This document shows positions 1,841 through 64,000 of a stretch of 64,000 bases of DNA, piece by piece. Under the pieces are notes generated by a model that searched no databases, was not told the DNA's origin, and worked only from the letters and a program-made list of their open reading frames with translations. Source of the DNA: a virus (Duplodnaviria > Caudoviricetes); the IMG/VR virus record IMGVR_UViG_3300026549_000032, positions 96,001 through 160,000 of that record; one strand, written 5' to 3'. Made by a program: the position numbers and the translations under genes. The first letter of the stretch is position 1. The number at the start of each line of letters is the position of its first letter.

Positions 1841-2104
1841 TTATGCTTTTTTATGAATCGTTACTCGTCTGATTTTTAGGTTAGCATCCCACTCACACTG
1901 CGGGCACTTAAGTTTAATCATACCTTCTGTGACTTCGGCATCCTCAAGGTGCTCTAGTTTCCAAATCTGTTCGTCACTAAGGTTTGAGTCTAGAGTAATG
2001 TGAACTGGATGACCGCAAGCGGGGCAGTGATCCTTATCTTGATCATCAAAGATACGACCATCCTTTGTAGTTCCTTTGATTCGTAATAGGTCTTTAATCT
2101 CCAT
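1841..2104 (-). CDS. Small Zn-ribbon protein
   Basis: CPACG and CPQC; overlaps the nadE stop. Confidence 0.65.
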   Translation of the reverse strand: MEIKDLLRIKGTTKDGRIFDDQDKDHCPACGHPVHITLDSNLSDEQIWKLEHLEDAEVTEGMIKLKCPQCEWDANLKIRRVTIHKKA

Positions 2105-4016
2105 ATTCTTTTAATTGTTTAAACCATTCATACTGATTAGCATCACTTGGCATTCTCCAATCACCTCTTGGGCTTAAGGAGATTGAACCAATCTTAGGTC
2201 CATCAGGGAGACAGCTTCTCTTAAACTGTTGGCTGAAGAATCGATTGATAAATACTTGCAACCACTGTTTAAGGTCTGCTCTCGTATAGTCCTTACTCCA
2301 ACCTTCTCTGGTGTGCTCTGCCAGGTACATAATCTTAGCAGGACCATAACCATGACGAAGCATATTATACAGGAAGAAGTCATGGAGCTCGTAAGGACCA
2401 ATCTTATCTTCCGTTACCTGAGCGTCTTGTCCACCGGCTCCAGAACCAGTAAGCTCTGGACTAACTGGAGTGTCAAGGATATCCATGAGAGTGTCATGAA
2501 GTTCTCTATTGGATACCATAACCCAGCTAGCGTACCAGCCAATGAGCTTCTTGATGAGAGTTTTGGGAACACTAGCATTTACACCATACATACTCATGTG
2601 GTCGGCATTGTAAGTACACCAACCAAGAGCAAGTTCCGATAGGTCACCAGTTCCGATAACCAGGCCTTTCTCCTGATTAGATAGGTTCATGAGGATTTGT
2701 GTTCTACTACGTGCCTGTACATTTTCATAGGTAACATCCTGTGTGGTCAAGTCATGACTAAGGGCCTTGAGTTCAGCGGTAGCCATGTCGACGATACTTA
2801 TCTCTCTAGTGTCAATCCCAAAGGCCTTCATCAGGGCCCAAGAGTTCTTCTTCGTTCTCTCACTGGTTGCAAATCCAGGCATAGTCACGCCAATGACGTC
2901 AGAGACGGGATTCCCTAACATCTTCATAGCTTCTATGGCTACAATCAATGCCCAGGTAGAGTCTGATCCACCAGAGATACCTATGACAGGTTTCATTCTA
3001 GTGTGGTATAGTCTCTTAGCTAGGGCAGCGGACTGCATTGTCAAGATATCTTTGCAACGATCATCTAGTTCTTTGCCTGTTGGGACGAATGGTTTAGGAT
3101 TCCACTCTCTCACTGTATCACCTTCACCAATGATGGATCCTGGGATCTGCCATTTTGTCACATCTCTTGGATTATAGTCGGCCCTGAACTGACGGAATGT
3201 CGTATTGACTGCACGTTCGTTCCTGAGAGACTCTAGGTCTATGTCATTCACAACAATCTGACCACCAGTATTGGCGACTAGGGATCTGTTGTTCTGAGCC
3301 AAGAGCTTACCATTCTCAAAGATCAGGGCATTTCCCTGATAGACTAGATCTTGAGTAGATTCACCAAAACCAGAGCTAGCGTATACATAACCACAAATGT
3401 GGTCTGCACTTCTCTGACGAAGCATGGACACTAAGTACTGATGTTTGCCAATGAGCTCATTGCTTGTGGAGAGGTTGAAGATAACCTCAGCTCCAGCCTG
3501 AACCATAGTCGTACATGGCGGATAGGGAGCCCAAACGTCTTCACAAATCTCAACACCAAACTTCACGCCATCTTCTGACTCAAAGACGCGGAAGGGGAAG
3601 TTATCACGACTGAACCATCGAGGCTCATAGAACTCTTTATAACCTGGAAGATTTCTCTTACCAACGGCCTTAACGACTTCACCTTTGTAGATGACCAGGG
3701 CGGTATTGAAGATTGGTTCATTTCTGTCCGCTCTAGCAGGAGCACCAACAATAATAACCTGCTTGTGATTCTTTGTATGTTCACAGATATCTGCAACACC
3801 ATTTTCGGCAGCTTCAATGAGACATTCCTGGAAGAATAAGTCACCGCACGAATAGCCAGTTACACAGAGTTCCGGGAAAACGATTATATCAACTCCTTGT
3901 TCTTCTGACTTATCAAGGAGTTCTATTATTTTACTAACATTATAGGATACATTTCCTACAGTTACTTCTGGAATAGCTGCTGCTACTCTTAATAATTTTG
4001 CTTGTTTCCTGTTCAT
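2094..4016 (-). CDS. nadE: Glutamine-dependent NAD+ synthetase
   Basis: Nitrilase-type glutaminase triad (VFPEL, KRNLP, EICEDVW) fused to synthetase domain (GISGGSDS, ENVQAR, GTGDLSE, QQFKRSCLPDGPK, SPRGDWRMPSD). Confidence 0.97.
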   Translation of the reverse strand: MNRKQAKLLRVAAAIPEVTVGNVSYNVSKIIELLDKSEEQGVDIIVFPELCVTGYSCGDLFFQECLIEAAENGVADICEHTKNHKQVIIVGAPARADRNEPIFNTALVIYKGEVVKAVGKRNLPGYKEFYEPRWFSRDNFPFRVFESEDGVKFGVEICEDVWAPYPPCTTMVQAGAEVIFNLSTSNELIGKHQYLVSMLRQRSADHICGYVYASSGFGESTQDLVYQGNALIFENGKLLAQNNRSLVANTGGQIVVNDIDLESLRNERAVNTTFRQFRADYNPRDVTKWQIPGSIIGEGDTVREWNPKPFVPTGKELDDRCKDILTMQSAALAKRLYHTRMKPVIGISGGSDSTWALIVAIEAMKMLGNPVSDVIGVTMPGFATSERTKKNSWALMKAFGIDTREISIVDMATAELKALSHDLTTQDVTYENVQARSRTQILMNLSNQEKGLVIGTGDLSELALGWCTYNADHMSMYGVNASVPKTLIKKLIGWYASWVMVSNRELHDTLMDILDTPVSPELTGSGAGGQDAQVTEDKIGPYELHDFFLYNMLRHGYGPAKIMYLAEHTREGWSKDYTRADLKQWLQVFINRFFSQQFKRSCLPDGPKIGSISLSPRGDWRMPSDANQYEWFKQLKEYGD

Positions 4017-60195: not shown

Positions 60196-60241
60196 GGGAC
60201 GTAAAACACGTCCTTTTTCTTTTCACTCCCTTACCTCTGAA

Positions 60242-60469
60242 ATGAGATTTAATTTAATTTATAAAAGAATTAAAGATACAGATCCAATAGAGATTCCTAG
60301 TCTGGTGAGGGATGATGAAGGAGGAGCATTATCAGGACCAGAAGCTTATAAAGCATTCTGGAAAGCCTATAATGAAACTCAACGCACCATAAACGCGCTG
60401 ATATATCAGTTAGAGATGGTACGTGACTCACTTAACAAGGAATCTAATCAAACAAATAATATATGCTAA
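60242..60469 (+). CDS. Hypothetical protein
   Basis: CCCTTAC upstream. Confidence 0.6.
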   Translation: MRFNLIYKRIKDTDPIEIPSLVRDDEGGALSGPEAYKAFWKAYNETQRTINALIYQLEMVRDSLNKESNQTNNIC

Positions 60470-60918
60470 TCCGGATAACAAATCAGAAACTGATTCGTGA
60501 TGCACTGAATAGATTAGCAGACTTAATGTACGAAACTAATGGACACTACCTCAGGAAGGTTCTTTACGTGGACGATTACTTGTATCTAGGGCGACACGGT
60601 AATAATCTGAAGTACTCTGATAGGTTGGGCATAGTATGTGTAAAAGCATGGCAGAAAAATTGGAGAGAAGGTTACTTCTTAATGAAAGAATTAGCGACCG
60701 TCTTAAATTCTCAAACCCTCGCTCTACCTTTCGAAGAAGTTCAGAAAAGAATCTGGCAGGAAGCTGTTAATAAACCTTCTAATGTAGATTACCTAGAGTA
60801 CTTAGATAATGCTTACATAACTGTTATGAAGTTTAATAGCATTGTGTTCAATTGGTTTTGGGCTAACTTTTTACATCACTGGGACAATGTTGTGGCAGCC
60901 TATAGAAAGAAAACCTGA
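60463..60918 (+). CDS. Hypothetical protein
   Basis: 151 aa. Confidence 0.6.
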   Translation: MLIRITNQKLIRDALNRLADLMYETNGHYLRKVLYVDDYLYLGRHGNNLKYSDRLGIVCVKAWQKNWREGYFLMKELATVLNSQTLALPFEEVQKRIWQEAVNKPSNVDYLEYLDNAYITVMKFNSIVFNWFWANFLHHWDNVVAAYRKKT

Positions 60919-61393
60919 TGTTGTTATATCTATGGGGAGGTCCTATGTAGAGGATTTCCTCGCCTCAAAAAGAAAGATGAGCGAACAAATTCCCTCCTGG
61001 ACAACAATAGCTAGGTGGAGAGGTCATCCCGGAAGGGGGATAAGAGATTTTGGTTTAAATATAACAGATGCTCCTTTTACGAGAGAACTCTTACATGACT
61101 GGTGGGTACATGGAATCGTATCAAACCAGTGGAGAGGTGTCGATGGTACAAAAGCTTTGGAATTATTACCAAACAAAACTATTCATGACGCACTCCGTGA
61201 ATTTATCTACCCAGAAGTGAGTGGTGATTGGAGTGCTAGAGAGGAAAGAGAGGAGAAAGCTTTTGCGTTAGCAATTGTTAGGATAGACTCTCTATGGACT
61301 AAGTTTTGTGAATATTTTATAATTAGAAGATTAATATATGATAGAGTACAAAGAAGGGAACATTTTCACATCTCTAGCGCAGACTATTACTAA
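60887..61393 (+). CDS. Hypothetical protein (MLWQP start)
   Basis: Probable ATG at 60887. Confidence 0.6.
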   Translation: MLWQPIERKPDVVISMGRSYVEDFLASKRKMSEQIPSWTTIARWRGHPGRGIRDFGLNITDAPFTRELLHDWWVHGIVSNQWRGVDGTKALELLPNKTIHDALREFIYPEVSGDWSAREEREEKAFALAIVRIDSLWTKFCEYFIIRRLIYDRVQRREHFHISSADYY

Positions 61394-61967
61394 TACAGTA
61401 AACCTGATGGGAGTCATGGGAGCTGGCTTGGCGTTAGTCCATAAAGCCATATTTCCAAGGATGTATCAAACCTACAGGGACTACTGTAAGGCTGGTCAAT
61501 TTAAAGCAGGTCAGCTTTGGGTATGGGATCAGTCCTGGAAATGGCAGGTCTTAAACTTCCCGACGAAACGACATTGGCGTGATTGGTCAGAGATCCCTCT
61601 CATCGAAATGGGACTAATGAACTTAGTGAGAACGTATCAGGAGAGAGGAATAACTTCTCTGGCAATACCACTCCTGGGTTGTCAGAATGGTCACCTGAAA
61701 GAGAAGGATGTACTGCCAGTCATGGAGAAGTGGTTAGGACAGATGAATATCCCCGTAGAAATATGGAGACGAAATCCTGATGCCCCAAATCCAATCTGGA
61801 ATGAGCTTAAGTTTAAGTGTTCGGCAGGGAAGACAACTTTCGAGAGAATAGTTCTGGAATGTGAATCTTTCGAGGACTTGGTTAAACGACCAGGTATAGG
61901 AAGAGACTCTTGGGCTAAGGAAACAGGTAAAATACTAGGGATAGAGAAAGATGATATTCAGAATTAA
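61338..61967 (+). CDS. Macrodomain protein (DarG/Poa1p-like ADP-ribose hydrolase)
   Basis: GNIF, TNTVNLMGVMGAGLA, LNFPTKRHWR, SLAIPLLGCQNGHL. Confidence 0.9.
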   Translation: MIEYKEGNIFTSLAQTITNTVNLMGVMGAGLALVHKAIFPRMYQTYRDYCKAGQFKAGQLWVWDQSWKWQVLNFPTKRHWRDWSEIPLIEMGLMNLVRTYQERGITSLAIPLLGCQNGHLKEKDVLPVMEKWLGQMNIPVEIWRRNPDAPNPIWNELKFKCSAGKTTFERIVLECESFEDLVKRPGIGRDSWAKETGKILGIEKDDIQN

Positions 61968-62097
61968 TAATGATATATCTGACCTTGTCGGTTGGTATAA
62001 CGGAATACCTGTCATCCGAGTAGATCGAAGGGAATTGAAAAGAAAATATCTGACCTTCTTGACGATGCGAGATTTATTCGGAGTTCAGTTTATATGA
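61951..62097 (+). CDS. Mini-ORF MIFRI (48 aa)
   Basis: Hand-translated; ATGA-coupled to the next ORF. Confidence 0.55.
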   Translation: MIFRINNDISDLVGWYNGIPVIRVDRRELKRKYLTFLTMRDLFGVQFI

Positions 62098-62204
62098 AGT
62101 GGAAATTGAAAACGATAATTGCATCTTGGAAAGGGAAACAGCCCGTATTCCATGCAGAAAGATTTCCATTTCGTTTCTGGAATGAAATTTGGTTACCGGG
62201 ATGA
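62094..62204 (+). CDS. MxW mini-ORF MKWKL (36 aa)
   Basis: Hand-translated; ATGA overlaps on both sides. Confidence 0.6.
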   Translation: MKWKLKTIIASWKGKQPVFHAERFPFRFWNEIWLPG

Positions 62205-62368
62205 TTTGGAAAATAAATCAAACAGAAGAAATTGGGTACTCTATAACCCATGATAGACCTGTCTATAATTTTAGAAGGGAATATGGCCAAACAACTAGTA
62301 GCAATATATCTGATTGGTTTAAAGAATGGTATGGGAAGTTAAAAATACTAGAAGGAAACTTAGAGTAA
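62201..62368 (+). CDS. MxW mini-ORF MIWKI (55 aa)
   Basis: Hand-translated. Confidence 0.6.
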   Translation: MIWKINQTEEIGYSITHDRPVYNFRREYGQTTSSNISDWFKEWYGKLKILEGNLE

Positions 62369-62508
62369 CTGTTAAGATACCTTTTGGCAAAGTATCATCC
62401 AATGGGATAATATATAACAGTGAAGCTCTTCTTGAAGCGATCAAAAGCTGTAATGGCCTAGGAGAGATAACTCATAAAAGTTCTGACGGACTATGGTTTG
62501 GAGTATAA
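62326..62508 (+). CDS. MxW mini-ORF MVWEV (60 aa)
   Basis: ORF track; contains SNGIIYNSEALLEAI..GLGEITH. Confidence 0.6.
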   Translation: MVWEVKNTRRKLRVTVKIPFGKVSSNGIIYNSEALLEAIKSCNGLGEITHKSSDGLWFGV

Positions 62509-62726
62509 GCCAAGAGGTATTGTTTAGTGAAACCGTCGATAGATTCATGGGAGAATGGCAGAAAATACTTAGAGCGAGTATGCGTGCCTTCAGTGCTTCC
62601 ATGACAGTTGACTTGAATCCAAAGAATATAAACTATGTCACGAAGACTTCGACAGGAACGTGGATTCCAAGTCAGTATGACATAGATACGACTTTGGGAA
62701 ATAACAATATAGGATATTCGACATGA
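62493..62726 (+). CDS. MxW mini-ORF MVWSI (77 aa)
   Basis: ORF track; LFSETVDRF similar to the next ORF. Confidence 0.6.
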   Translation: MVWSISQEVLFSETVDRFMGEWQKILRASMRAFSASMTVDLNPKNINYVTKTSTGTWIPSQYDIDTTLGNNNIGYST

Positions 62727-62884
62727 CTTGGGAAGTAAATGCGATACTGTTTAGTAGGAAAGTTGATAGATTCTCTACTAAATTTAGAAGCTCTTTCCGA
62801 AAGGCAATGATGCTTTCCTACATGTATGGTGGGGATGGACATGTCGTATTTGATTACGAAACAGCAGGATGGAGTGGAAGTTAG
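62723..62884 (+). CDS. MxW mini-ORF MTWEV (53 aa)
   Basis: Hand-translated; LFSRKVDRF. Confidence 0.6.
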   Translation: MTWEVNAILFSRKVDRFSTKFRSSFRKAMMLSYMYGGDGHVVFDYETAGWSGS

Positions 62885-63123
62885 CGAAACTAGGAATGCC
62901 TAAGCGTTTTTATGATAAGTTAGTCAGAGATGGGAATATAATATTTGCTCCCTACATGCCACTAACTAGTACGCCAACCATAGGCAACTTCAGCAATCCC
63001 GCGCAAACCGTAAATACCAAATATTATTGTGCGGATACTACTATCTGGTCTTCTAAGAAGATACATACTATCCGTCCCTGCACGCTTGACGAGGGAGGAG
63101 ATAGTGACGTTAGTGAAACATGA
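62869..63123 (+). CDS. MxW mini-ORF MEWKL (84 aa)
   Basis: ORF track; contains GNIIFAPYMPLTSTPTI. Confidence 0.6.
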   Translation: MEWKLAKLGMPKRFYDKLVRDGNIIFAPYMPLTSTPTIGNFSNPAQTVNTKYYCADTTIWSSKKIHTIRPCTLDEGGDSDVSET

Positions 63124-63290
63124 CTTGGAACTTTTCAGACACAATGACCATGGCGATAGAACAGAGGGGAAAGATGGGAAGAGGTCCTAAAAGACCTAAC
63201 CTACTCTACTGTTTTAAGACTTGGGTTGAATTGAAAGAGAAAAATGAAACGCTTTTCAAGGCGTGTGAGAAGGAGCTTTTGAGGAAATGA
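63120..63290 (+). CDS. MxW mini-ORF MTWNF (56 aa)
   Basis: Hand-translated; ATGA overlaps. Confidence 0.6.
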   Translation: MTWNFSDTMTMAIEQRGKMGRGPKRPNLLYCFKTWVELKEKNETLFKACEKELLRK

Positions 63291-63391
63291 TTTGGAGGAT
63301 CAATCCAAGAAAACGGACAAGGACTAGTGGTGTGTTTATCTTGACCAAGGATGGACTTAAGCCTATAAACATTCCGAGGACATGGAAATGA
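63287..63391 (+). CDS. MxW mini-ORF MIWRI (34 aa)
   Basis: Hand-translated; ATGA overlaps. Confidence 0.6.
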   Translation: MIWRINPRKRTRTSGVFILTKDGLKPINIPRTWK

Positions 63392-63513
63392 AGTGGAATA
63401 TAGACATAGATATTTCAAAAGTCCTCCGCCTACGGAGATTAGAATTGATGATGTTTGAGTATTACATTAATCATGATCTGGGACGTATTAATCGAAGAAA
63501 TAGGACTTGCTAA
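63388..63513 (+). CDS. MxW mini-ORF MKWNI (41 aa)
   Basis: Hand-translated. Confidence 0.55.
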   Translation: MKWNIDIDISKVLRLRRLELMMFEYYINHDLGRINRRNRTC

Positions 63514-63598
63514 ACTAACCATCACTACTTCAACTAAAACAACAACTCATACATGTAAGTTGACGTTAATAACCTCCAGCGATGGTGTTAAACGTTGA
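63473..63598 (+). CDS. MxW mini-ORF MIWDV (41 aa)
   Basis: Hand-translated. Confidence 0.55.
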   Translation: MIWDVLIEEIGLAKLTITTSTKTTTHTCKLTLITSSDGVKR

Positions 63599-63606
63599 AA
63601 GAAGAT

Positions 63607-63816
63607 ATGAGGTGGGAGTTTAGTGAACTGGTTAATAGATATGTTAGTCCTCCTATCCCAACACTAGATGATATGTCTAACTTAACCTTCTGGGAAAACA
63701 CCAACAGTAATCTCAGAGATGGGATAAAGGCATACAAACAATTATTACACGTTTACAATGCTTTGGGAGTTAAACCTGATTTTGAAACCCATCCTGTGGT
63801 GGGCGAGGGATTCTGA
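63607..63816 (+). CDS. MxW mini-ORF MRWEF (69 aa)
   Basis: Internal ATG of track ORF 63595..63816. Confidence 0.6.
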   Translation: MRWEFSELVNRYVSPPIPTLDDMSNLTFWENTNSNLRDGIKAYKQLLHVYNALGVKPDFETHPVVGEGF

Positions 63817-64000
63817 GATTTTCATAGTAGACAGAACCACAGATCCGGTCACCCAAGTAATAGAAGATACAGATGCAGCCTGGAATAGCTATCATGAATA
63901 TCAAGCAAAGTACGGGACAAGACTCTTTCCAGAGTACCCAAGCAGGAATGACTGGTATTTTGCAGTAGCTATGACTATGCTTGAGAATGGTGATTATAAA
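63758..64000 (+). CDS. MxW ORF MLWEL (partial, runs off the window)
   Basis: Hand-translated; 81 codons with no stop. Confidence 0.55.
   Translation, partial: MLWELNLILKPILWWARDSEIFIVDRTTDPVTQVIEDTDAAWNSYHEYQAKYGTRLFPEYPSRNDWYFAVAMTMLENGDYK

Follow-up and report, generated by a model that had tools for sequence, protein, structure and literature searches.

The portal, the capsid, and the prohead protease have all been documented to determine immune activation in bacteria (PMC13581612; bioRxiv 10.1101/2023.05.21.541620), and some immune sensors read short conserved segments of the capsid (PMC13581612). In concept, the closest described cases are the Gol peptide of gp23 with Lit and the capsid motif with CapRel, in which short conserved capsid segments are the sensor targets; these segments are parts of a full capsid protein, and they activate defence. 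Short N-terminal tags occur in the internal proteins of T4 and in Alt, which carry a capsid-targeting sequence of approximately 10 residues. T4 itself also has small ORFs (alt.-1 and alt.-2) that adjoin their parent gene and are annotated as old partial duplications of the gene alt (NC_000866).

We found that a rumen phage genome of approximately 384 kb carries an operon with 18 tiny conserved genes, which can be compared with each of these systems. As in the T4 internal proteins and Alt, a short N-terminal tag is present on several otherwise unrelated proteins, whereas the tag has another sequence and no protease cleavage motif was seen in it. Similarly to alt.-1 and alt.-2, small phage ORFs appear to come from part of a larger gene, although the T4 ORFs do not share a tag, nor are they arrayed pieces of unrelated parents. 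One product of the array, member 1, aligns weakly (P = 0.03 only) with residues 86–117 of gp23, which we take to overlap the Gol region; unlike the segments read by Lit and CapRel, those considered here are encoded by separate genes, and the inhibition of defence by them is hypothetical.

A conserved array of mini-genes behind a Macro-domain gene

The window analysed is the whole stretch of 64,000 nucleotides, and the strand is given with its coordinates. On the left, the transcription unit is bounded by a terminator-like hairpin with a T-run (60196..60228, +), recognized from the sequence, which ends the preceding gene. The first three genes of the unit were taken from the ORF list (60242..61393, +; 75 aa, 151 aa, and approximately 168–183 aa); the 75-aa product starts with M-R-F-N-L, and all three genes are also called in the relatives L003 and L004. 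The fourth encodes a Macro-domain protein of 209 aa (61338..61967, +; Pfam PF01661, E = 7.5e-9; phrog_335, E = 4.7e-29), lies directly 5′ of the array with a 17-nt overlap with member 1, and showed a dN/dS of 0.02 against L003. The array forms the distal end of this operon of approximately 4.5 kb, which begins four genes before the array, the Macro-domain gene included. Elsewhere, the phage genome has NAD-salvage genes, encodes a Lon-like protease (phrog_4871, E = 1.2e-179), and has an RT-like gene at the contig's right-hand end.

The array comprises 18 translationally coupled mini-genes. The three ORFs picked out in the original prediction are its members 1 (61951..62097, +; 48 aa, M-I-F start, orthologue in L003), 4 (62326..62508, +; 60 aa), and 7 (62869..63123, +; 84 aa, homologues P0001–P0003), and the peptide strings quoted for them were present on the + strand at these positions. 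Between them lie members 2 and 3 (62094..62368, +; 36 and 55 aa, with ATGA start/stop overlaps and orthologues in L003 and L016) and members 5 and 6 (62493..62884, +; 77 and 53 aa, from the ORF list). Members 8–12 (63120..63816, +; 56, 34, 41, 41, and 69 aa) and member 13 (63758..64000, +; 88 aa, truncated by the window end) come next, and members 14–18 lie beyond the window end (L107:3009-3816). The array is followed by a second terminator-like hairpin with a T-run, also recognized from the sequence (L107:3798-3829). RNA-library contigs of 4.49–4.56 kb from two studies start at approximately 60,240–60,305 and terminate at both hairpins, unlike a DNA contig, which continues for 67 kb.

Comparison of the sequences demonstrated that the array genes are real and under purifying selection and that related rumen phages keep both their order and their reading frame. 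The same array was found in L003–L007 and in the more distant L016. The orthologue of member 1 in L003 was 73% identical, and the orthologues of member 4 were 85%, 81%, and 48% identical, with lengths of 59–61 aa throughout. Of the 16 members that were compared with L003, 15 had a dN/dS of 0.06–0.58; the protein of the sixteenth (member 18) was 100% identical to that of L003, which left its dN/dS undefined. The values were 0.09, 0.12, and 0.32 for members 1, 4, and 7, all of which have orthologues in related rumen phages, 0.06 and 0.15 for members 2 and 3, and 0.18 and 0.06 for members 5 and 6. Because dN/dS was far below 1, a decayed, non-functional head module was rejected as an explanation of the array.

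No significant match to contig ORFs 60 aa or longer was obtained for any of the 18 members (blastp-short), and a blastn search of the phage collection with this region returned no match. IMG/VR protein-pattern scans based on member 7, the Macro-domain protein, and a gene past the contig end retrieved no close relative. Members 5 and 6 appeared paralogous by eye, with the common pattern L-F-S..V-D-[RK]-F; their comparison by blastp-short was not significant (E = 0.73).

An M-x-W-x-hydrophobic start was shared by 17 consecutive products of the 18, member 1 starting with M-I-F. The M-x-W tagged mini-protein array is a class defined in the present analysis, with F for W in member 1, and members 1, 4, and 7 were assigned to it by their tagged start, small size, coupling to the preceding ORF, and conservation in relatives. 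A looser pattern (M-x-[W/F]-polar-hydrophobic), which also takes in M-x-F starts, was found in ORFs of at least 30 aa 36 times on the + strand and six times on the − strand; the tag pattern was not found in the relative LR756500.1. The regions upstream of the array genes had no consistent Shine–Dalgarno (SD) site, and many of the starts were ATGA overlaps. The tag did not contain the T4-type L/I-x-E cleavage motif. A tagged ORF located 27 kb downstream corresponded to the N-terminal domain of EF-Ts (BLASTP E = 3e-6 against residues 9–41 of E. coli Tsf); all five of its PDB matches were EF-Ts, and its sole NCBIfam match was TIGR00116.

Similarity of the mini-proteins to T4-type head proteins

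On sequence comparison, member 4 proved to be a stand-alone look-alike of the N-terminal strand–helix–strand unit of the gp21/S77 prohead protease, in agreement with the resemblance to gp21-type N-terminal motifs originally noticed by eye. An alignment of member 4 built from four orthologues was compared with eight gp21-family proteases using hhalign, which placed residues 7–56 on residues 29–91 of T4 gp21 (P = 8.6e-5, probability of 60%). None of 200 column shuffles reached the real score (maximum of 21.5 vs. 30.0), none of 450 decoy targets reached the real match (best P = 0.0025), and the register was identical for every orthologue and every gp21 homologue taken singly. In the ESM Atlas feature search (scores of 0.97–0.98), 16 of 30 matches fell in Peptidase_S77 clusters, in addition to YonD_N and Phage_GPO, and the nearest clusters were N-terminal pieces of these families (PF03420, PF27290, and PF05929, respectively).

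Member 4 contains N-G-x-x-Y, followed by a helix and then by the strand G-E-x-x-H, and the two motifs flanking the helix resemble N-R-N-x-R-x-Y and G-E-L-N-H of T4 gp21. G-E-I-T-H was invariant in all five member 4 sequences and fell on G81–H85 of T4 gp21, with His50 aligned to His85, presumably the catalytic His; the Pro of the family motif G-E-x-x-H-P was replaced by Lys or Ile. The residues invariant among the orthologues, down to 48% identity (I-Y, L-L-E-A, and G-E-I-T-H), were those common to the protease family. Unlike T4 gp21 (approximately 210 aa), member 4 is 60 aa long, has a helix shorter by eight residues, and carries the M-x-W tag in an accessory operon rather than beside portal and capsid genes. 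It ends 10 residues past the His, before the strand with the nucleophile Ser (G-V-S-S-R-G region) of a family domain of approximately 200 aa; it is therefore not a protease and cannot cleave.

Even when matches at E ≤ 10 were admitted, Pfam returned no PF03420 match for member 4 or any of the four orthologues, and a plain gp21 HMM aligned to the orthologues in inconsistent registers at approximately 3 bits. An exhaustive HMMER search with the member 4 profile retrieved no protease, portal, or capsid protein; it yielded 60–61-aa orthologues and long proteins built of repeats, among them cadherin and BspA-type LRR, and the latter group was judged spurious because their scores add up over many short stretches. 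A protease gene that is broken and read through by frameshifting was also rejected, as the downstream ORFs (members 5 and 6) failed to align with the remaining residues 92–212 of gp21 (hhalign P ≥ 0.29).

Member 15 (L107:3358-3465, beyond the window end) was identified by Pfam, PHROG, and hhalign comparisons as the tag joined to the conserved helix motif of T4-type portals. In two orthologues of member 15 (53% identical), Portal_T4 (PF07230) was the sole Pfam match (E = 0.044 and 0.057), covering profile positions 286–305 with scores of 12.9 and 12.6 bits, below the gathering cut-off of 22.9. The sole PHROG match of member 15 was a portal family, and the hhalign comparison with the portal gave a P of 2.3e-6, which was reached by none of 250 shuffles. 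Among the six-frame gp20 matches of the contig, member 15 was also the sole significant one (E = 0.006, against 1.6 for the next). As a peptide of 35 aa, it cannot be a portal.

The likeness of member 7 to the gp23 C-terminal motif, which had also been put forward, was borderline. Its best match was a 12-residue motif, DGNIIFAPYMPL, against DAGIFFAPYVPL of phage PhaxI, with residues 21–32 agreeing at eight of the 12 positions, and hhalign against gp23 gave a P of 0.0033 (none of 250 shuffles). The motif resembles D-A-G-x-[FY]-[FY]-A-P-Y-V-x-L of T4 gp23/gp24 (PF07068); unlike these capsid proteins, member 7 has 84 aa and cannot form the HK97 fold, and outside the motif it matches nothing. It was the top six-frame gp23 HMM match in the contig, at an E of 2.9; the HMM score for the motif was 3.4 bits. 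Pfam, PDB sequence, and ESM Atlas searches gave no support, and the motif varied among orthologues: the window copy, like those of L006 and L007, has A-P-Y-V-x-L, and L003 has G-P-W-V-S-L. The capsid-like motif was the least conserved part of member 7, although a maintained mimic would be expected to show the reverse.

A head-protein similarity of member 1 was not supported by the sequence comparisons. Its G.(Y/F)NGIPV segment, formerly taken as capsid-type, had no counterpart in gp23 or gp24, and its C-terminus matched residues 86–117 of T4 gp23 weakly (hhalign P = 0.032; one of 250 shuffles reached the score). Members 1 and 7 and their orthologues (48 and 84 aa) had no Pfam match, including to the gp23 family PF07068. 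The view that these tagged mini-proteins carry pieces resembling conserved head proteins was thus borne out for member 4, as well as for member 15, which lay outside the original prediction; it was only suggestive for member 7 and was not supported for member 1. As had been stated, members 4, 7, and 1, with 60, 84, and 48 aa, are not long enough for the structural proteins themselves.

The gp21 and gp23 families had been picked after the ORFs were viewed, and P values of 1e-3 to 1e-4 alone could reflect this selection; the unbiased searches were those of Atlas, Pfam, and PHROG only. When 86 other small ORFs of the contig were compared with the gp20, gp21, and gp23 profiles as a control (258 tests), the minimum P was 0.022, while three array pairs were found at P < 0.004. 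The similarities of the array to head proteins were remote (approximately 20–25% identity plus motifs). PDB sequence searches were negative for members 4, 7, 14, and 15, and NCBIfam gave no match for members 1, 4, 7, and 15. Confidence in the AlphaFold2 models was low (pLDDT of 58.9 and 36.5), and Foldseek searches of PDB and BFVD, like the shape search of the Atlas, returned generic or weak matches only.

It is unlikely that the array members as a whole are ordinary early-gene ORFans, that is, real genes in which the likeness to head proteins is a chance or motif coincidence picked by eye and the M-x-W start is an initiation or reinitiation preference in a host making little use of SD sites. 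The upstream regions and ATGA overlaps described above agree with such an origin, as do the lack of significant Pfam, PHROG, NCBIfam, or PDB matches for members 1, 4, and 7 (HMMER, approximately 3–4 bits), the lack of conservation of the member 7 motif in L003, and the 13 of 18 members without similarity to anything. However, three unbiased library searches returned the predicted families (Atlas for member 4; Pfam and PHROG for member 15), no shuffle, decoy, or control ORF came to the hhalign P values of 8.6e-5 and 2.3e-6, and the matched families all come from one functional module. For members 1 and 7 taken alone, an origin as ordinary ORFans is still likely.

Candidate roles of the tagged mini-proteins

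It is quite possible, though short of probable, that the mini-proteins are fragment-derived competitive binders of the partners of larger proteins. Each mini-protein would present one interaction surface of the larger protein, minus its activity, and would thereby titrate a partner of the parent protein. The likeliest partner would be an immune sensor of the host, one that recognizes conserved features of head proteins or features linked to EF-Tu, and the common N-terminal tag would give a shared handling step (coupled initiation, turnover, or targeting). A role in blocking sensors or poisoning competitors may be envisaged, which fits the Macro-domain gene in the unit and the NAD-salvage genes; by analogy, sensor blocking would also fit the published immune sensing of the portal, capsid, and prohead protease. 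If the members are mimics, they would offer a large phage a cheap and modular way to neutralise the partners of its most conserved proteins, as only the recognised surface need be expressed. The portal, capsid, and prohead protease are the proteins indicated by bacterial sensors and CBASS escape mutations, and natural minimal binders would therefore be direct probes of what the sensors read.

A more specific proposal, which we regard as rather unlikely, is that the whole operon is a library of tagged bait peptides, every one of them a minimal interaction surface copied from the conserved portal, prohead protease, or capsid or from host EF-Ts. The baits would serve as multi-target decoys that simultaneously blind several motif-reading or EF-Tu-linked immune sensors, or they would disable the head assembly of competitors. 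To our knowledge, neither counter-defence nor interference by phages has been described in the form of a tagged bait library.

The matched parents (portal, protease, and capsid) are the prohead initiation and core set, and the shared tag recalls, by analogy, the capsid-targeting sequence of T4. The mini-proteins might accordingly be directed at assembly, as dominant-negative agents against co-infecting related phages, as regulators of prohead timing in the phage itself, or as prohead cargo delivered via the tag, with the Lon-like protease possibly limiting their lifetime. This appears distinctly improbable, because the array stands with the Macro-domain gene in a seemingly accessory unit far from any structural gene, the EF-Ts-like tagged ORF is unsuited to a role in head assembly, and the tag is without the cleavage motif.

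Origin of the fragments and the head genes of the phage

Partial duplicates of head genes and of host tsf may also have been captured behind a fixed start module and retained for functions unrelated to their parents, the likeness then being only historical. The remote similarities, limited to the slowest-evolving motifs of the parent families, are consistent with such exapted debris, as are the precedent of the T4 alt duplications, a 132-aa degenerate S77-like ORF in LR756500.1 with Asn instead of His, and the RT-like gene. We consider this origin improbable, since dN/dS was low throughout the array and the invariant residues of member 4 are those of the protease family, which suggests that the parental surface itself is under selection. 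Even without a mimic function, the array would clearly exemplify how genes arise from parts of larger ones placed behind a constant start module, and it has an M-x-W start conserved on approximately 20 small proteins.

The head genes of the phage itself are not on the 218-kb contig, which makes up the first 218 kb of the 383,912-bp ENA contig of this phage (ERZ27252065:k141_178852); the remaining genome is the rest of that ENA contig. The 218-kb contig had no PF07068 or PF03420 match, PHROG scans of 30 large ORFs of the contig gave no capsid, portal, or protease, and a search with the LR756500.1 capsid returned no protein from the 383,912-bp contig among the best 120 matches. The IMG/VR relatives of the 731-aa protein of the phage were all at most 48% identical to it. 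A relative with 44% identity in this protein encodes a gp23-family capsid and an S77 protease, and T4-type head genes are therefore expected in this lineage.

A conserved array of tagged mini-genes

The three ORFs and the peptide strings quoted in the original prediction were located by reading the sequence: member 1 (window 61951..62097), member 4 (62326..62508), and member 7 (62869..63123). They belong to a chain of 18 mini-ORFs (34-127 aa) on the plus strand, spanning window positions 61951 to 64816, the final 816 bases of which lie beyond the window end. The ORFs are tightly packed, overlapping by 4 nt (ATGA) or by 16-59 nt. The start M-x-W-x-[ILVF] was found in 17 of the 18 products, and member 1 starts with M-I-F. 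As no conservation was found in the DNA 5′ of the start codons, the common feature is the first five codons. At four 16-nt overlap junctions (window 62493 and 62869; L107:3009 and 3706, L107 being the same contig past the window end), the same bases encode the tag M-x-W-x-x and, in the other frame, the upstream C-terminal [W/C]-x-G-x-stop; thus, the tag constrains the C-termini of the preceding proteins.

On comparative sequence evidence, the array mini-ORFs are real genes. Homologues of member 7 (95, 76, and 70% identity) were encoded on contigs that kept the whole array ORF for ORF, 3′ of the same Macro-domain gene, and a more distant relative retains members 2-5. The dN/dS values against the lineage of L003, a related rumen phage contig, were 0.06-0.58 in 15 of the 16 members compared (0.09 for member 1, 0.12 for member 4, and 0.32 for member 7); the member 18 protein was identical in this lineage, leaving its dN/dS undefined. 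A terminator-like hairpin with a T-run, read from the sequence at window 60196-60228, ends the gene preceding the unit, and another terminator-like hairpin (L107:3798-3829) lies on the stop of member 18. RNA-library contigs over the region (4.49-4.56 kb; three metatranscriptome runs from two studies) end at both hairpins, and a DNA contig across the same region continues for 67 kb. This is a weak hint of a single polycistronic transcript comprising three small genes, the Macro gene (PF01661), and the array.

Resemblance to head-assembly proteins

Member 15 (35 aa; L107:3358-3465, window 64358-64465, past the window end) carries the M-x-W tag and a conserved motif of the T4 portal protein gp20, its E-Y-F-R-D-K-I-F-K-A-A-K-I-P-K-E-R-F aligning with the portal Y-F-R-x-K-L-Y-x-A-L-x-I-P-x-S-R. 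Portal_T4 was its sole Pfam match (E=0.044) and again the sole match, at the same profile positions, of a 53%-identical orthologue (E=0.057), and the sole PHROG match was a portal family. Alignment with gp20 by hhalign gave P=2.3e-6 (probability 89%), a score reached by 0 of 250 shuffles, and member 15 was the only significant match in a six-frame gp20 scan of the contig (E=0.006).

The member 4 orthologue alignment matched the family of gp21, the S77 prohead protease (hhalign P=8.6e-5, probability 60%), with residues 7-56 on T4 gp21 29-91. N-G-I-I-Y was placed over N-K-R-L-Y, followed by a helix and then G-E-I-T-H over G-E-L-N-H. Column shuffling never approached this score (200 shuffles; top score 21.5 vs 30.0 for the real alignment), and the lowest P among 450 decoy targets was 0.0025, indicating that the hhalign P-values are roughly calibrated. 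The register was identical for each member 4 orthologue and each gp21 homologue taken singly, and the highest single-sequence score came from the most divergent orthologue. In an independent, unbiased ESM Atlas feature search (7.7 million clusters; scores 0.97-0.98), Peptidase_S77 accounted for 16 of 30 matches, the remainder including YonD_N and Phage_GPO clusters. The AlphaFold model was poor (pLDDT 59) and predicts a strand, a helix, and two strands. Member 4 keeps the His strand without the Ser strand of the protease, and purifying selection falls on exactly the parental motif residues. Member 4 thus resembles the N-terminal part of the S77 prohead protease, and its sequence makes homology probable.

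An exhaustive HMMER profile search with member 4 retrieved only 60-61-aa orthologues and spurious repeat proteins, and a plain gp21 HMM (7 sequences) gave only 3-4 bits in inconsistent registers. Members 1-9 had no Pfam or PHROG match at E<=1, and nothing was found in PDB sequence searches with members 4, 7, 14, and 15. None of members 1, 4, and 7 belongs to the protease or capsid families. The ORFs after member 4 were rejected as the remainder of the protease, which they do not supply.

Member 7 carries a short motif, D-G-N-I-I-F-A-P-Y-M-P-L, resembling D-A-G-I-F-F-A-P-Y-V-P-L of the family of gp23, the major capsid protein (hhalign P=0.0033 with the alignment and 0.0016 with the single sequence; 0 of 250 shuffles reached the score). 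It was the best segment in a six-frame gp23 HMM scan of the whole contig, at only E=2.9 (next, E=29). A plain gp23/gp24 HMM (9 sequences) gave 3-4 bits only. In member 1, no counterpart of G-W-Y-N-G-I-P-V was found in gp23 or gp24. Its C-terminal D-L-F-G-V-Q-F-I aligned weakly with D-I-C-G-V-Q-P-M of T4 gp23 (residues 86-117; hhalign P=0.032, equalled by 1 of 250 shuffles), and control ORFs scored at about this level.

The predicted mimicry of head proteins was therefore partly supported. The gp21-type likeness of member 4 was borne out by hhalign, shuffles, decoys, and the Atlas. The gp23 likeness of member 7 is suggestive but not established, as hhalign, the shuffles, and its top place in the six-frame scan stand against null searches of Pfam, PDB, and the Atlas and a capsid-like motif that varies more among orthologues than any other part of the protein. 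The capsid-type G.(Y/F)NGIPV segment claimed for member 1 found no support.

In member 3 (window 62201-62368, 55 aa), P-V-Y-N-F-R-R-E-Y-G resembled gp23 468-478 and W-F-K-E-W-Y-G-K-L-K-I-L-E-G-N resembled gp21 104-120, neither significantly (hhalign P about 0.1).

Tagged ORFs outside the array, controls, and putative function

A tagged, stand-alone EF-Ts N-terminal domain of 55 aa was identified at contig 191,162-191,329 (L014:11162-11329) by BLASTP (E=3e-6 to E. coli Tsf, residues 9-41 on 9-41), PDB (EF-Ts in five of five matches), and NCBIfam (TIGR00116 as the sole match). The N-terminal domain is the part of EF-Ts that contacts EF-Tu. Member 17 (L003:7564-7737; L107:3548-3721) matched EF-Ts_N (PF25025) with E=6e-4 in L003 and 0.038 in the window copy, both under the cut-off, and BLASTP against E. 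coli Tsf returned nothing. Other plus-strand ORFs of 60-148 aa with M-x-W or M-I-F starts lie at contig 154,456, 161,167, 162,368, 182,135, 184,900, and 186,591. They had no gp20, gp21, or gp23 HMM match in the six-frame scan, and their Pfam matches were all under the family cut-off (best, NuiA_2, E=0.011).

When 86 further small ORFs from the contig were compared with the gp20, gp21, and gp23 profiles (258 tests), the lowest P was 0.022, and 54 such tests of the array gave three pairs with P<0.004 (members 4, 7, and 15). As the head families had been picked after the ORFs were seen, P-values of 1e-3 to 1e-4 could stem from an implicit motif search. This objection is escaped by the library-wide searches (Atlas for member 4, Pfam and PHROGs for member 15, and PDB and NCBIfam for the EF-Ts-like ORF), by the very low P of member 15, and by the matched families sharing one assembly module; member 7 does not escape it. 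The matches of member 4, member 15, and the EF-Ts-like ORF thus make tagged mini-proteins that correspond to pieces of larger proteins a real theme in this genome. Similarity to anything was absent for 13 of the 18 array members, and none was found between the array mini-ORFs and larger ORFs of the contig.

The members may be competitive binders, each presenting one conserved surface of a larger protein and lacking that protein's remaining catalytic or structural parts. This reading fits best because of the tag, the tiny size, the single surface, the selection on the member 4 motif, the possible co-transcription with the Macro gene, and the putative NAD-salvage genes. Avs proteins, Lit, and CapRel act as sensors of portal and capsid proteins (PMC13581612), and type I CBASS escape maps to the prohead protease and capsid (bioRxiv 10.1101/2023.05.21.541620); a putative role as immune decoys was therefore ranked first. 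Our literature search found no paper on head-protein fragments acting as decoys. Interference with head assembly was ranked second. A serious rival is that the members are exapted debris serving unrelated roles.

The phage genome and its relatives

The phage contig comprised 218,381 bp (40% G+C; IMG/VR completeness rating, 60%), of which the window covers bases 96,001-160,000. An ENA contig from another sample, L108 (ena:ERZ27252065:k141_178852; 383,912 bp), carries an identical right-end gene and runs ~165 kb beyond the contig end, so the contig represents the first 218 kb of a ~384-kb genome, and L108 is probably nearly the whole of it. Both begin at nearly the same base, within the first giant ORF. 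No gp23 or gp21 family gene was found on the 218-kb contig, and the missing head genes should lie on bases 218-384 kb of L108. Identity to the nearest annotated relatives was only 34-44% in a conserved 731-aa protein; these relatives were the uncultured 462-kb phage LR756500.1 and phages of Cellulophaga and Bacillus. As LR756500.1 encodes a gp23-family capsid and an S77 protease, a T4-type head module is expected in the lineage.

LR756500.1 also encodes, distant from its head genes, a 132-aa degenerate S77-like ORF (L106, minus strand, ~154,951-155,127; PF03420, E=2.5e-4). It reads G-E-L-Y-N-P, with Asn at the His position, and is a second case, in a huge phage, of a short protease-like protein that is apparently inactive.

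NAD synthetase and NAPRTase genes, a faint isochorismatase-type Pfam match, and a Lon-like protease were located at window 2094-4016, L108:18934-21344, and L012:30-2732. The isochorismatase-type match is possibly nicotinamidase-like, and with the first two it may form an NAD-salvage set. The Lon-like ATP-dependent protease (900 aa, phrog_4871) is encoded in the same genome. Four giant ORFs (1,608-2,653 aa) occupy the left end of the contig (7-56,403; L008-L010), together with genes for tail-fibre-like proteins. A weak RVT_1 (reverse transcriptase) match was obtained for a 447-aa protein (L015:16549-17892, contig 216,549-217,892, minus strand) that was identical in sequence on 10 contigs. DNA of the array region recurred across many metagenomic studies of the bovine and sheep gut.
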